Source: Candidatus Latescibacterota bacterium (GTDB lineage Bacteria > Latescibacterota > UBA2968). Taken from it: DNA of 64,000 bases. Positions 8,101 through 18,159 of this stretch are shown piece by piece. The stretch is taken from contig OZ240241.1 in the NCBI GenBank assembly GCA_965198115.1, positions 4,032,001 through 4,096,000 on the forward strand, written 5' to 3'. Numbering within the stretch: position 1 is the first letter of the stretch; each line of letters begins with the position of its first letter. A program made the position numbers and the translations under genes. The notes below the pieces were generated by a model. The model had not been told where the DNA came from. It searched no databases and saw nothing but the letters and a program-made list of their open reading frames with translations.

Positions 8101-9738
8101 AGTGATCAGTTCCTCACGTAGCGGGTCGATCGGCGGATTCGTCACCTGAGCGAACAGTTGCTTGAAGTAGCTGTAGAGGAGGTGGGGCTTGTCCGACAGA
8201 ACGGCCAGCGGCGCGTCGTTCCCCATCGACCCCACGGGATCCTTCCCCGAGGAAATCATCGGACCCAGGAAAACTCGCAGGTCTTCGTAGGTATATCCGA
8301 ACACCTGCTGGCGTTGCAACACCTCTTCGTGGTCGGGTAGCTTATCGTCGATACTCGCCTTCGGCAGGTATTCCAAGGCGACAAGGTATTCGTCGAGCCA
8401 GGTTTGATAAGGGTTCGCTGTAGCCACCTGATCTTTCAGCTCTTCGTCGCTGATGATCCGGCCCTGCTCGGTGTCGACCAGCAGCATCCGACCCGGCTGG
8501 AGACGGTCCTTGTGAAGGACACGATCGGGCGGGACCTCCATCACCCCGACTTCAGAAGCCAGCACGACGAGATCGTCTTTTGTCACGTAGTAGCGCGAGG
8601 GTCTCAACCCGTTGCGGTCGAGCACGGCTCCGATCTTCACGCCATCCGTAAAAGCAATCGACGCGGGGCCGTCCCACGGCTCCATCAGACAGCTGTGGTA
8701 CTGATAGAAAGCGCGTTTCTCCGGACTCATGCTTTCGTGGTTTTCCCACGGCTCCGGAATCATCATCATCATCACGTGCGGGATCGATCGGCCGGCCAAC
8801 GTCAGGAATTCGAGCGCGTTGTCGAACACAGCAGAATCGCTTCCTTCCGGGTCCTCGATCACCGGCATGACCTTCTCCAGGTCTTCGCCGAACAATTCCG
8901 AAGCGAAATTGCCCTGACGCGTGAACATCCAGTTCACGTTGCCTCGCTTCGTGTTGATCTCGCCGTTGTGGATCATCATCCGATACGGATGCGAGAGCTC
9001 CCAACTCGGGAACGTATTCGTGCTGAAACGGGAGTGAACCAGTGCCAGAGCGGTCATGATCGACCTGTCTTTGAGGTCGATGTAAAAGTCCTCCACCTGC
9101 GCGGGCGTCAGCATCCCCTTGAAGACGATCAATCGCGAAGAGAGGCTCGACACATAGAAGTGCTCGCTGCCAGGCAAATCTCCTTCGTAACGAATCTCCC
9201 GGGCCACGCGCTTTCGGATCACATACAACTTCCGCTCGAACGCGTCCTGATCTTGAATGGCGTCGCTTCGACCGATGAAGATCTGCCGAATCGATGGCTC
9301 CAGACGCTTGGCGGTTTCGCCCAGATGCAGGTTGTCCGTCGGCACACCGCGCCAACCGAGCACGACTTGCCCCTCCTCAACCACGATGCGTTCAAGCACC
9401 TTCTCTTGCGCGTGGCGTTGATCACGATCGGGGCTCAGGAAGATCATGCCGACACCATACTTGCCCGGCCAGGGAAGGTCGATCCCGATCCCATCGCACG
9501 CAGACTGGAAGAAGCGGTGAGGAATCTGCATCAGAACCCCTGCGCCATCACCCGTATCCGGTTCGCTCCCCCTGGCTCCTCGATGGTCGAGGTTCACGAG
9601 CACTTCCATCGCCTGACGTACGATTCGGTTGGACTTCTGACCTTTCACGTGGGCCACAAAACCGATTCCGCAGGCATCGTGCTCGTTCTTCGGGTCGTAC
9701 AGACCTTGTTTCGGGGGCAATCCGATGGGGTTTGACAT
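5149..9738 (-). CDS. gltB: Glutamate synthase large subunit
   Basis: EHDACGIGF (catalytic Cys), [30 protein letters not shown] and [19 protein letters not shown] motifs. Confidence 0.98.
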
Positions 9739-9966
9739 GGGTTTAACCTTTTTGACAACGCCCATCACTGCGCGTGACCGCTACACCTCGGGGATTCGTC
9801 GTTCGAAACGGACGGCTCGGACTGTGACTTCGGCCGATGGGCTCAGCCAACCCGAGAACGTTTAATATAATGGGTTTTCGGGAAACCGCAAAGGCGGGGT
9901 AATACTTGGTAGTGTCCTAATTTGACGGCAGTCCGAGGTCGGCGGGACTGTCGGGTATGGGTGGAG

Positions 9967-10261
9967 CTACCTGTTTTGTGAAGCGATGGACGCACGGACG
10001 GCGTCTTGGGCAGAGGCTACCGGGGGGACGTGGAGAACAGCAAAAAACTGTCGTCTATCGGACCCTTGGACGGGAGACGACCAAGCGTATGCGATAGACG
10101 CCGATGGGTGGCCTTCGAGGGCGAAAGATGTGAACGTCTCCGTCCCAGACCGTCTCGCCCTCGAAGGTTTCTGTTACGTGTTCTGTGCCCGTATGGCGGG
10201 CGTTACATTCGTGTAGGCCCTCAACCGCCTGCTTCAGGGCCGCTATCGGGACTTCCTGCAT
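9967..10261 (-). pseudogene. Passenger gene B, ~97-aa hypothetical protein with a +1 frameshift near 10124
   Basis: MQEVPIAALKQAVEGLH...TFEGETVWDGDVHIF continues in another frame as ALEGHPSASIAYAWSSPVQGSDRRQFFAVLHVPPVASAQDAVRASIASQNR to TAG 9967. Confidence 0.7.
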
Positions 10262-11024
10262 CGTCAGCGTCCTCTGCTTCAGCGGCCAAAGACCAAATGG
10301 TCTGGAGGCTGTCTATCAACTTTCCGAACTTCGATTTTAGGACTTCAGAATCCATATCTGACAGGGAAAGCCCATTGACGGGGAATCCCACATCAATCTG
10401 GGCATCCCCCATCTTGATGGTGTAGGTTCCGGGCATTTTGTTTGTCCGATGAGAGACAGGGCCGGGCTGCGGTGGTGGCGGTGCTATGGCCGCGTCCCCG
10501 TCGTTGTCGGCGGATTTATCACCACCTTCACCCTCCAATATACGGGCTTCTGAGAGTCCTGCAAACTGAATTGTCGTCGGGTAATTCTGTAAAAAGGTTT
10601 CCGTTCCTGTTTCGGTAAACCCGTTTCTGCGCTTACAATAGTCCCTCATGTCGTAGATGTCCGGTATTGGTTTTTCCGGTGTGTAGAGGGTGCTGTAGAC
10701 AGGTGGACTAAGGGCCGCCAGCCGGAGATTCTTCATTCTCTCGTTCGAGTCGGGGCGCTCGTCCCTCACTATGTCACGGGCAATATCCGTCAACCGATAT
10801 TCCTTCGTACCCGCGTTCTTCTTGCCCCTTTCCTCCATCAATCCGAACTGCCCCAGTGTGGAAAGGGCCGCGTCGGCCGCATCGTTACTGGACACTAACT
10901 CACGTATCTGTGGGAGGATAGCGTCAAGATGCACCCACCGTGTTCCGTTTCTTTGCTCAAGGGCTGTCGTAAGATGAATCGATTCCTTGAGGTCTATTAA
11001 CGGATGAGATTTGCTCCTTGCCAT
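10221..11024 (-). CDS. Passenger gene A, uncharacterised protein with probable winged-helix N-terminal domain and low-complexity C-terminus
   Basis: 267 aa with CAGGAGG RBS; helix-then-wing pattern ALSTLGQFGLMEERG...YRLTDIARDI; Pro-rich linker; lower GC than the flanks. Confidence 0.75.
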   Translation of the reverse strand: MARSKSHPLIDLKESIHLTTALEQRNGTRWVHLDAILPQIRELVSSNDAADAALSTLGQFGLMEERGKKNAGTKEYRLTDIARDIVRDERPDSNERMKNLRLAALSPPVYSTLYTPEKPIPDIYDMRDYCKRRNGFTETGTETFLQNYPTTIQFAGLSEARILEGEGGDKSADNDGDAAIAPPPPQPGPVSHRTNKMPGTYTIKMGDAQIDVGFPVNGLSLSDMDSEVLKSKFGKLIDSLQTIWSLAAEAEDADDAGSPDSGPEAGG

Positions 11025-11057
11025 AGCGCAACCTCCTGAGATTTCGTATACTTTGTA

Positions 11058-11145
11058 TGGCGGAAGGCGCAGGAATCGAACCTTAGCCGTTCGGCTTCTC
11101 CAAGGTGTATGGCCCGGATTGCGTCACCAGACGCGAGCGCCTTCC
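11058..11145 (-). tRNA. tRNA(Sec)-like 9/3 cloverleaf RNA (allo-tRNA-like) with a non-canonical anticodon loop
   Basis: Reverse complement reads GGAAGGCGC-UC-GCGUC(UGGU)GACGC-AA-UCCGGG(CCAUACAC)CUUGGA-GA-AGCC(GAAC)GGCU-A-AGG(UUCGAUU)CCU-GCGCCUUCC-G-CCA: 9-bp acceptor stem, 3-bp T stem, D tetraloop, variable arm, G73 and encoded CCA. Confidence 0.8.
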
Positions 11146-11163
11146 GCCCGTATCTACAAAGCT

Positions 11164-11191
11164 AATATAGCGCCTACCCCGGCAATGTCAA
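11164..11191 (-). promoter_or_regulatory. Sigma-70 promoter for the tRNA-like RNA and passenger genes
   Basis: TTGACA-16 nt-TATATT on the minus strand; the -10 box ends 19 nt upstream of the cloverleaf. Confidence 0.7.
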
Positions 11192-11246
11192 CCCCCAATT
11201 CTTGAAATTGGGGGGTTTTTCGTGCCCCCAAACACCAAAATTGGCG

Positions 11247-11275
11247 TTGACACAGTGAGCGCCAATCTTTATGTT
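11247..11275 (+). promoter_or_regulatory. Sigma-70 promoter for the IS1 transposase
   Basis: TTGACA-17 nt-TATGTT; separated from the divergent promoter by a hairpin (acccccaatt/aattggggggt, ~11191-11216). Confidence 0.65.
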
Positions 11276-11306
11276 AGGGTTACACGTTAAGGTAAAGGGC
11301 ACCGCA

Positions 11307-12128
11307 ATGGCTAACAATCTGAAGCGCGAAAAGCAGGAAATGGCGATTAACTGCCTGGTGGAGGGAATGAGCGTCCGTTCCGTCGAGCGGCTGACGGGCG
11401 TCCACCGCGATACGATCCTGCGGTTGATGGTGCGGGTCGGGAACGGCTGTAAGACGATGATGGATGAAACCCTACGGGGTCTGTCCTGCAAGCGGATTCA
11501 AGTGGACGAAGTGTGGGGTTTCATCGCGAAGAAGGAACGGCACATCAAATACGGCGATCCCGAGGAATACGGCGATGTTTGAACGTGGGTCGCGCTTGAC
11601 GCAGACACCAAGCTGGTTCCGGCCTATAGAGTGGGCAGGAGGAACGGGCAGGTTGCGCGGGAGTTTCTTGGCGACCTGGCCTCCCGCTTGGACTCACGTA
11701 TTCAGCTTTCGTCCGACGCCTTTAGTGCTTACAAGGATGCCGTAGATGAACAGTGGGGCCCGGCCGTCGATTACGCGCAAATCGTAAAATCCTTTGAAGC
11801 GGAGCCCATCGGGCCGGGTAGGTATTCGCCCCCGAAGGTGTCGGCCGTCCACAAAGACGTGATTATGGGTGAACCCGACATGGGCCACGTATCCACGTCC
11901 TACGTCGAGCGCCAGAACCTAACGATGCGCATGTCGATGCGTCGGCTGACGCGGCTCACCAATGCCTTCAGCAAAAAGGGAGATAACCTGAAAGCGGCTG
12001 TCTCCCTACACTTTGCTCATTACAATTTCGCCCGCATCCATAAGACGCTGAGGGTGGCCCCGGCGATGGAAGCGGGCGTGACGAATCGGCTTTGGACCGT
12101 GGGTGATCTACTCGACTGCGCGGCGTGA
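11307..12128 (+). pseudogene. IS1-family transposase with one in-frame TGA (11580-11582)
   Basis: HTH (LVEGMSVRSVERLTGVHRDTI), IQVDEVWGF, SSDAFSAY and STSYVERQNLTMR. The two track ORFs share a frame and join as GDV*TWVALD, where Trp is expected. Confidence 0.88.
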
Positions 12129-12182
12129 AATTAGGACACTACCTAATACTTACTCCACTGCAGACTAAGCGAATCTAAAGGC

Positions 12183-12800
12183 TCAAGAATCGCGAACCAC
12201 GGTAGCTTTTCCGTTCGTCAGGTTCCGAATCGCATTCGACAGCCCTTCGACCCGTTCCGTCGGCAACCACAAACGAAACGTCGCATCTGTAGCATACTCC
12301 TCATCGACCATCTCGGCCTCGTAGTCAGGCAGAAGTCGTTTCATTTGGTCGACAAACGCATAGTCGAACCGAACGTGGATGGACAACCGATCGACCTTTT
12401 CTACCAGCTCCGCGGTGGACAGTGCGTGCTGGACACCCGATGAATACGCACGAACCAACCCGCCCTTGCCGAGCTTCGTCCCGCCGAAATAACGCGTTAC
12501 GACCACAGCCACGTCACCCGCGCCTCCGTGAACGAGGACGTTCAGCATCGGTCGACCGGCCGTACCGTGCGGTTCGCCGTCGTCGCTCATCCCCACCGTG
12601 CCCGTCGAGCCTGGCGGGCCGATCAAGAAGGCCCAGCAGTTGTGGCTCGCGTCGGCGTAGGTCTTCCGCACCTCCTCGACGAGACCCTTGGCGGCGTCGA
12701 CGCCGACCGCCGTGTCGAGGGTCGTGATGAACCGCGACCGTTTCACTTCGTCCTCCACGCGAACGCGGCCGGCCGGGATCGGATAGCGCGAACGAGACAC
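12183..12800 (-). CDS. yigZ: YigZ/IMPACT family protein
   Basis: KRSRFI, DASHNCWAF, SDDGEPHGTAGRPML and TRYFGGTKLGKGGLVRAY motifs. Confidence 0.93.
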   Translation of the reverse strand: MSRSRYPIPAGRVRVEDEVKRSRFITTLDTAVGVDAAKGLVEEVRKTYADASHNCWAFLIGPPGSTGTVGMSDDGEPHGTAGRPMLNVLVHGGAGDVAVVVTRYFGGTKLGKGGLVRAYSSGVQHALSTAELVEKVDRLSIHVRFDYAFVDQMKRLLPDYEAEMVDEEYATDATFRLWLPTERVEGLSNAIRNLTNGKATVVRDS

Positions 12801-17755: not shown

Positions 17756-17962
17756 TTAGCGGCGGCGACGGGCGCTCTTCTTCGCTTTCTTGGCTTTTTT
17801 AGCCTTCTTGGCTTTTTTGGCCTTTTTGGCTTTCTTCGCCTTTTTGGCCGGCTTCTTAGCCCTTCTCGCTGAACGCTTGGCTGGCTTTTTCACCGTCCTT
17901 GCCGACTTTTTGGCGACGCGCTTTTTGGCCTTCTTCGTTTTCTTGGCCCTTTTTACCGGCAT
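17756..17962 (-). CDS. Small Lys/Ala/Arg-rich histone H1-like protein (68 aa)
   Basis: AAGGAGG RBS; AKK repeats encoded with varied codons; followed by a hairpin. Confidence 0.75.
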   Translation of the reverse strand: MPVKRAKKTKKAKKRVAKKSARTVKKPAKRSARRAKKPAKKAKKAKKAKKAKKAKKAKKAKKSARRRR

Positions 17963-18159
17963 CGCTTTCACCTCCTTCTCGTGGATTCGTAACAGCCGTT
18001 GGCGGTGTCCGCAGACGATCACACTTTAGGTCGACTTGACCAACTGTGAAACGCCCTTTATCTGCCGGTGAATATACGGCCGGTTCATTTCACGAATCAA
18101 GAAGATTCTGATTATTCAGCCACTATTTGACAGAGTTTTTAAGATCGAAACGACGCTGG

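Follow-up and report, generated by a model that had tools for sequence, protein, structure and literature searches.

A clade of IS1-type insertion sequences probably controls its own transposase through a private tRNA addressed to one reserved GUA codon of the transposase gene. This tRNA would have a new fold, in which a 9/3 body is combined with an extra helix and an enlarged anticodon loop. Two unrelated bodies, one of serine and one of alanine type, appear to have come into use at this codon, and in sister elements a UAU loop seems to be paired with an AUA codon. The RNA folds as a cloverleaf, lies among the cargo of its element and belongs to a family with a recurrent loop motif. The transposases of its carriers have GUA at one fixed position and avoid it elsewhere.

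An IS1-type element with a cargo cassette

The window is the whole stretch of DNA analysed, 64,000 nucleotides from a Candidatus Latescibacterota genome. The initial annotation had described in it an 88-nt minus-strand 9/3 cloverleaf carried by a bounded insertion sequence, with a promoter of its own upstream and a passenger gene starting downstream, and the feature is confirmed as real as first described (Table 1). The promoter-like site is found at 11191-11164 and the ATG of the passenger at 11024.

Table 1. Features of the IS1-type element, in window coordinates
Feature	Position	Strand	Basis
Target-site duplication, left copy, TAATACTT	9900..9907	.	Sequence comparison; empty site in G070
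Terminal inverted repeat, left (start GGTAGTGTCCTAATTT)	9908..9927	+	Related elements bounded by same repeat
Small conserved ORF, ~100 aa in relatives, frameshift near 10125	9967..10261	-	Two frames; relatives intact
Passenger gene, 267 aa, large unnamed family	10221..11024	-	Homologues in elements L450, L383
9/3 allo-tRNA-like gene, 88 nt, G73, encoded CCA, variable hairpin	11058..11145	-	Fold, family alignment A1, model R1
Putative anticodon UAC (would read GUA), followed by A37; 8-nt loop, A33	11107..11109	-	Transposase codon match, loop statistics, fold energies
Promoter-like site TTGACA-16-TATATT, sigma-70-type, for RNA and passenger	11164..11191	-	11/12 consensus match
9-bp hairpin with T-run, terminator-like, between divergent promoters	11192..11224	+	Weak: 2 found vs 2.6 expected by chance
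Promoter-like site TTGACA-17-TATGTT for transposase	11247..11275	+	Sequence motif
Single-ORF IS1-type DDE transposase with in-frame UGA	11307..12128	+	Translation, relatives, NCBIfam
Family-conserved GUA codon, Val of Q-I-V-K, codon 160, profile column 171	11784..11786	+	Profile alignment
Terminal inverted repeat, right	12124..12143	-	Sequence comparison
Target-site duplication, right copy	12144..12151	.	Sequence comparison; empty site

The element measures 2,236 bp between its inverted repeats and is flanked by an 8-bp duplication. In a genome of the same genus (G070) the site is empty, the sequence at window position 9907 being joined to that at 12144 with an 8-bp overlap. Terminal inverted repeats, a target duplication of 8-9 bp and an empty site, as expected of the IS1 family, are all present. 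Further likeness to that family (NCBIfam NF033558, Pfam PF03400) lies in the GGTA start of the repeats and, probably, in a transposase with HTH and DDE parts. Unlike classic IS1, elements of the window's type have a single transposase ORF plus passengers; the IS1A layout, with InsA and InsB' in two frames and a -1 frameshift, is absent, both halves of the window gene lying in the same frame around a UGA. This UGA (11580-11582) is codon 92, a conserved Trp in the relatives, whose transposases are single ORFs. The best NCBIfam match of the window transposase, a gene with an internal stop, is transpos_IS1 (E 2e-9 and 1.6e-6), under the 100-bit cut-off, and the transposase of the related locus L041 passes Pfam DDE_Tnp_IS1. 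We take the subgroup of the element to be ISMhu11, a name for which a literature search found nothing.

The small ORF has intact homologues at L041 (3558-3875), L044 (4014-4325) and L450, matches no Pfam or NCBIfam family, and accompanies this transposase clade both with and without the RNA. Contigs from two sequencing runs of one sample, probably the source, show 0 differences from window positions 9500-12600, UGA included. The UGA and the frameshift are therefore real, and the element is non-autonomous. A tie between the UGA and the RNA was rejected, the UGA being private to this copy and the loop of the RNA having no UCA.

The passenger belongs to a family of 5,295 clusters (50% identity; E<=0.001), in which the nearest named cluster is DUF5343-like, a weak lead. 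It matches no Pfam, NCBIfam or PADLOC family and gives no meaningful PDB match; searches with it returned no viral loci and, in one other case, the self-match only. None of its 8 Val codons is GUA. Promoter-like sites matching 11/12 consensus positions number 3 against 1.1 expected, and the one that would serve RNA and passenger lies 18 nt upstream of the first base of the RNA. A similar site precedes the RNA of L450, an element in an Actinomycetes genome that repeats the layout of the window, with a promoter, a CCA-bearing RNA, a ribosome-binding motif and a homologue of the passenger. L044, a close relative from the same class, has the same repeats and small ORF and neither RNA nor passenger. 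The RNA therefore belongs to a cargo cassette. Its description as cargo of a precisely bounded insertion sequence is borne out here by the inverted repeats, the 8-bp duplication and the empty site, and holds family-wide.

A tRNA-like RNA of 9/3 geometry

The acceptor stem of the RNA has 9 bp, all Watson-Crick, and the T stem 3 bp with the loop UUCGAUU, which together give the 12-bp branch of the 9/3 allo-tRNAs. The D stem has 5 bp and a UGGU tetraloop, and the variable hairpin 4 bp. A tRNA-Sec-like D arm with a tetraloop, a long variable arm and G73 are thus all present, and pair 3:70 is A3:U70, not G3:U70. The minimum-free-energy fold is this cloverleaf (z -3.58; 0/200 shuffles as stable), and it contains the irregular anticodon arm with an 8-nt loop that had been noted at the outset. 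Judged from its sequence, the window RNA is a variant of the 9/3 allo-tRNA class of Mukai et al. 2017.

Of the gene-finding checks initially suggested, ARAGORN called no tRNA gene in the whole window, and the best Rfam match of the RNA was tRNA-Sec, at 35.8 bits (E 2e-4), below the cut-off of 47 bits. Likeness to bacterial tRNA-Sec (selC; Rfam RF01852) extends to the GGAAG start, the CUUCCGCCA end, the tetraloop D arm, the long variable arm and G73, and could be read as a sign that the RNA is a captured piece of an ordinary selC gene. The probability of this is negligible. tRNA-Sec has a 13-bp branch (8/5, or 8/4 with a bulge), a UCA anticodon and a score of at least 47 bits, whereas the window RNA has a 12-bp 9/3 branch, no UCA and a sub-cut-off score. 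The host carries its true selC elsewhere, at 74.6 bits. The family model R1 matches only the window RNA across the host genome, and the family covariation described below likewise led us to reject a captured selC, a case that the initial annotation had named as fatal to its reading.

A family with a shared fold and an extra helix

Viral, GTDB and metagenome contigs scanned by sequence pattern yielded at least 112 distinct family sequences, the window's included, and at least 62 after thinning at 90%. Among the listed matches that have 2 kb of sequence on both sides, those of 9/3 geometry adjoin the transposase or the small ORF in 24/33 cases, against 3/76 of the others. Both inverted repeats flank the RNA in 17 of 30 listed loci, and an exact 8-9 bp duplication was seen by eye in 14. 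Acidobacteriota, Planctomycetota, Verrucomicrobiia, Polyangiaceae and Actinomycetes appear in the record titles. Applied with strict filters to 150 further genomes from the host phylum, model R1 found no family member, and among the sequencing runs listed none carries the RNA. The conclusions do not draw on G324, an unpublished genome.

In alignment A1, 93.5% of cells are paired, against 78.7% in shuffles, and both sides change in 20 of 25 pairs, so that the fold is shared by homologous elements with compensatory changes, the outcome that the initial annotation had required. Acceptor pairs 4-9 covary; 97.8% of acceptor cells and 100% of T-stem cells are paired, acceptor pairs 1-3 and two T pairs being fixed by the search pattern. 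G73 was also built into that pattern. A CCA is encoded in 21 of the 112 members, among the matches listed.

The family also has an extra helix, P2, in which nt 10-12 pair with a segment past the anticodon stem. Pairing reaches 95%, and covariation is seen at each of the three pairs, though rarely at two of them. Tested as a named structure and by partner shuffling, P2 is perfect in 47/62 members, against 25.8 +/- 3.0 on shuffling, and in 18 of the 26 members whose 5' strand is other than CCC; RNAalifold on a MAFFT alignment did not predict it. The window copy keeps at most 2 P2 pairs and folds more stably, by 3.2 kcal/mol, as a plain cloverleaf.

Relatives carry HigB-like, HTH, SecB-like, DUF4160/DUF2442 and IrrE-like genes as cargo (Pfam scan of 84 of about 240 neighbour ORFs), in agreement with the published toxin-antitoxin neighbourhood of 9/3 allo-tRNAs. 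At seven loci (L041, L424, L433, L497, L509, L513, L563) the RNA starts 1 nt past the stop of a cargo gene, and these genes differ; at L041 it closes a HigB-like/HTH/SecB-like operon. A cargo protein in another carrier element (L423:2201-2968) has a weak tRNA_anti-like (PF12869) match, below cut-off. With cargo genes and the place of the RNA in the element both variable, its suggested role as an RNase P signal for the passenger mRNA is not needed.

The anticodon most likely reads GUA

The loop motif is UACA in 104 and UAUA in 8 of the at least 112 family members. The metagenome search pattern required UACA, whereas the GTDB scan was blind to the anticodon; among its loop-classified members UAC-A accounts for 15/21 and UAU for 6/21 (L404 was assigned to the UAU group). 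In the UAC register the loop looks like that of a tRNA: among the matches listed, position 32 is a pyrimidine in 100/104 and position 33 is U in 84/104; A33 occurs in the window alone. On the 5' side, the anticodon stem of the family stops 1-2 nt short. The anticodon is therefore most likely UAC with one or two extra loop bases 5' of it. The original suggestion of a decayed, non-decoding anticodon does not survive: UAC-A recurs across the family, and fixed GUA codons match it in the transposases of carriers. A comparison of anticodons among relatives had been proposed; it shows a recurrent UAC-A in 15/21, with UAU in the other 6, and the irregularity of the arm is not decay specific to this copy. 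A33 and the weakened extra helix are the only features that look peculiar to the window copy. The window RNA has probably drifted (A33), and this copy may as a whole be degenerate or relaxed, to judge from A33, the weak P2, the dead transposase and the 3 GUA among its 25 Val codons. Since the host encodes a tRNA-Val(UAC), there is no missing decoder for the element to supply.

In a second register, the family would consist of ochre or amber suppressors with a 7-nt loop, UUA or CUA followed by C37, the window copy having mutated to AUA. The minimal anticodon stem does close a 7-nt loop, pair 31:39 is formed in 46/62 members, and 9/3 RNAs with UUA anticodons were listed by Mukai et al. (PMC5389517; this and the other PMC reports below are cited for their available parts). 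This register is nonetheless very improbable, and we dropped it on the transposase codon evidence. It needs the pyrimidine C37, where nonsense suppressors have a purine, and carrier transposases have no conserved in-frame UAA or UAG (cargo genes being outside this comparison). Five members of CUA register with GUA at column 171 have G-UAA there, not G-UAG. Neither a stop anticodon with purine 37 nor a cognate in-frame stop in the linked transposases was found. A four-base match of base 33 with the base after GUA was also tried, and showed no covariation; members with C33 keep GUA followed by A, which excludes both this match and an amber reading of the overlapping stop.

A single GUA codon matches the RNA

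Column 171 of the transposase profile is GUA in 39 of 41 transposases of UAC-A-loop carriers, and in 17/18 after thinning to <70% amino-acid identity. In the two exceptions GUA stands a codon upstream (L535) or out of frame (L572; this frameshifted gene was left out of the codon-usage counts). Eight other conserved Val columns have GUA in 3/275 cases. Elsewhere in carrier transposases the codon makes up 12/775 Val codons (1.5%), against 148/1,522 in other ORFs of carrier loci, 332/2,667 in other transposases and 23/177 (13%) elsewhere in eight clade-matched RNA-less elements, a range of 10-13% for the comparison sets. CUA, ACA, GCA and CCA show no depletion in carrier transposases. The window transposase has two GUA codons besides that of column 171.

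A second sample was collected by transposase regardless of RNA, and the flanks were scanned with two models and ARAGORN. Among its 121 distinct genes, GUA stands at column 171 in 11/11 UAC-A carriers and in 4/110 others (4/56 of those with Val), a signal that amounts to one origin and about three losses, so that Fisher values overstate the association. The RNA body is of the long 9/3 type in four of these carriers and, in the other seven, a short one with G3:U70, A73 and the same loop. In a tree that kept the 50 non-carriers nearest to the carriers out of the 121 genes, carriers form one clade (support about 0.8). Inside it are three separate RNA-less lineages (8 genes) with GTG, GTC, ATC or AAT at 171. 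In L044 and L636 the GUA is present although no RNA was detected, and 8 of the 10 RNA-less relatives inside the clade are without GUA at this column; the flanks of L632 and L747 are truncated.

These patterns very probably reflect a functional link of some kind between the RNA and the column-171 GUA. Co-inheritance by descent, with a neutral RNA or one serving the cargo genes, is quite improbable. It would be in keeping with the single clade of carriers, with the two RNA-less members that keep GUA and with the lack of a match in the 150 other host-phylum genomes, but it does not account for a synonymous codon kept across transposases that share <70% identity and show free variation in other Val columns, for three independent losses, or for the contrast between 13% GUA in clade-matched elements and 1.5% in carriers.

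Control of the small ORF through GUA was rejected: it uses the codon freely (124/647 Val), at the same level in carriers (15/124) and non-carriers (14/113).

Other loops and other bodies

In the three 9/3 elements with a UAU loop, column 171 is ATC and column 189 is AUA. The pattern recurs in one element with a 7/5 tRNA(UAU) and is absent from two others with tRNA(UAU), one of them in the host genome. Among other anticodon variants, the codon match fits at L633 and does not at L754, L688, L662 and L032; with such mixed results, a generalisation of the shifted register to other anticodons is not established.

The short tRNA-like RNAs (about 71 nt) with G3:U70, A73 and UAC-A lie at L635:3878-3948, L650, L751:3413-3484, L786:3121-3192, L788, L789 and L793, and all seven elements have GUA at column 171. 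Short RNAs with other loops occur at L633, L754, L771, L645, L688, L046, L796 and L776, and tandem short RNAs at L786 (two) and L707 (three). A leucine-type tRNA body stands upstream of an IS1-type transposase at L662:3787-3872 and also at L663, L664 and L666, and a 9/3 RNA with the loop CUUUAAA does so at L376; no fixed cognate codon in either register was found for the leucine-type group or L376.

A proposed mode of transposase control

We propose that the RNA is transcribed from its own promoter-like site and processed by RNase P, and that SerRS charges it with serine, as G73 and the long variable arm suggest in the light of the E. coli experiments reported for 9/3 allo-tRNAs (PMC5389517). 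It would then enter the ribosome and compete with the host valine tRNA at the one fixed GUA of the transposase mRNA, where the enlarged anticodon loop would cause a fraction of ribosomes to stall or change frame. Output of full-length transposase would fall, giving a brake that acts in trans and scales with the copy number of the element. The product of a slip would be an N-terminal fragment that keeps the DNA-binding part but lacks the final catalytic residue, and in this it would resemble InsA of classic IS1. We hold this account, in which a serine-type RNA with a UAC anticodon slips or stalls ribosomes at the fixed GUA and so cuts full-length transposase, only tentatively.

The main rival is that the RNA decodes GUA in frame, placing Ser (Ala for the short type) at that Val to give a full-length transposase variant of altered activity, with GUA avoided elsewhere so that the variant folds. 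Both G73 and a long variable arm are determinants for SerRS, and in E. coli 9/3 allo-tRNAs put Ser at sense codons (PMC5389517); the short type has G3:U70 in 7/7. One GUA site plus depletion elsewhere is what such decoding would predict, and in yeast mitochondria a natural tRNA with an 8-nt loop gives sense codons a new meaning (PMC3113583). A misincorporation switch of this kind would account equally well for the avoidance of GUA elsewhere. This reading is nonetheless somewhat unlikely. Residues tolerated at position 171 are V, I, H, Q, T, N and D, with S or A in some, so that amino-acid identity alone seems a weak lever; the RNA-less lineages revert to Val, Ile or Asn and not to Ser or Ala, and simple miscoding needs no mis-set loop. 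A needed serine thus seems unlikely, and this, together with a loop enlarged 5' of the anticodon as in SufJ, a frameshift suppressor tRNA of +1 type (PMC4238358), both in the 8-nt loop of the minimum-free-energy fold and in the family register, favours slipping or stalling.

Against slipping or stalling stands the free use of GUA in the small ORF, a gene that should suffer from any tRNA causing frame slips in general. Nor was a conserved shifted product observed: the +1 frames extend over 17-59 codons, and the short -1 frames have equally short counterparts in non-carriers. The six allo-tRNA(UAU) amber variants that Mukai et al. found inactive in E. coli (PMC5389517) were also counted against it, as were the encoding of CCA by only 21 of the 112 members listed, the mixed outcome for other anticodon variants, the three GUA codons of the window transposase, and the GUA kept by L044 and L636. 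A -1 shift at a GUA-AAR hexamer was rejected as the purpose of the codon, -1 frames being equally short in 6/8 clade-matched GUA-less non-carriers and L535 having no Lys context.

The RNA might instead not decode at all and act as a decoy for a toxin that attacks tRNAs, as a processing signal where cargo operons end, or through a loop pairing with the transposase mRNA away from the ribosome, the GUA being a pairing site or owing to another cause (an NNA-AAR hexamer, an antisense -10). The extra helix P2 departs from the normal tRNA fold, the RNA lies 1 nt past a cargo stop in 7 loci, cargo is often toxin-antitoxin-like, the loop found most often could pair with 5-6 nt around the GUA, and NNA_AAG is a known -1 site (PMC5009743). 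These variants predict neither the in-frame depletion of GUA, nor its loss with the RNA, nor the switch to AUA in UAU elements, and L535, whose GUA is not followed by a Lys codon, speaks against an NNA-AAR cause. We regard a non-decoding role as clearly unlikely.

Relation to known systems

The (9/3) allo-tRNAs (PMC5389517) share with the window RNA the 9-bp acceptor, the 3-bp T stem, the D stem with a UGGU-type tetraloop, the long variable arm and G73, and two UUA-type rows of that report match it in D arm core and T arm context. Published 9/3 RNAs lie near toxin-antitoxin genes, one of them overlapping a transposon-related ORF (PMC5389517; review PMC7609411). Their published anticodons (Arg, Leu and UAA; PMC5389517) stand in a regular 7-nt loop, unlike the UAC-A in an enlarged loop found here. 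The subfamily loop hexamers TTTACA, TCTACA, TGTACA and CATACA are in no anticodon loop of the available supplement tables of PMC5389517. The available text of that report mentions no extra helix, no residence in an IS1-type element bounded by inverted repeats and target duplications, and no matched codon; the 'five-stem junctions' of its Fig. 4A and S5 may show part of this.

Enlargement of the loop 5' of the anticodon is shared with SufJ (PMC4238358) and the yeast mitochondrial tRNA-Thr with an 8-nt loop (PMC3113583). SufJ is a mutant from the laboratory, and the yeast tRNA changes the meaning of an entire codon box, whereas the loop of this family is kept across bacterial phyla on a mobile element and is matched to one codon position. 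As in the control of insertion sequences by frameshifting (PMC5009743), low transposase output would be set at translation, here by an element tRNA acting in trans and not by a slippery site in cis. A literature search, with most subscription papers outside its coverage, found no report of an insertion sequence with a tRNA aimed at a codon of its own transposase. Codon-matched control of this kind is thus undescribed in the searchable literature, within a known class of RNA.

Allo-tRNAs have served as engineering scaffolds since 2017. If our proposal is correct, a trans-acting, codon-addressed regulator of transposition would be a natural function for them, and mobile elements would bring site-directed decoders into hosts of several phyla, missed by tRNA scanners as by ARAGORN here. 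The one-codon match makes that natural role directly testable by a synonymous swap of GUA to GUC. About 100 natural 9/3 RNAs with the extra helix and enlarged loops are also candidate frameshift or missense tools.

Related loci in the host genome

The host genome (G000) contains a second IS1-type element (C1:5954090-5956560, L032) with a 7/5 tRNA-Ile(UAU) with CCA directly upstream of the transposase. It has a DUF5343-like passenger, and 0 of the 14 Ile codons in its transposase profile columns are AUA. Remnants of elements related to that of the window (passenger end, small ORF) lie at C1:4020806-4021031 and C1:6187757-6188290, with 77-78% identity, and one of the two keeps the same inverted repeat. 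A compact array of 20 tRNA genes, including a tRNA-Ile(UAU), is found at C1:2870558-2872531, and three further host genes for tRNA-Thr(UGU) at 5106190, 5117492 and 6124366. Elsewhere in the window, the minus strand has at 17756-18022 a short, repetitive ORF rich in Lys and Ala, which we take to encode a histone-like protein.
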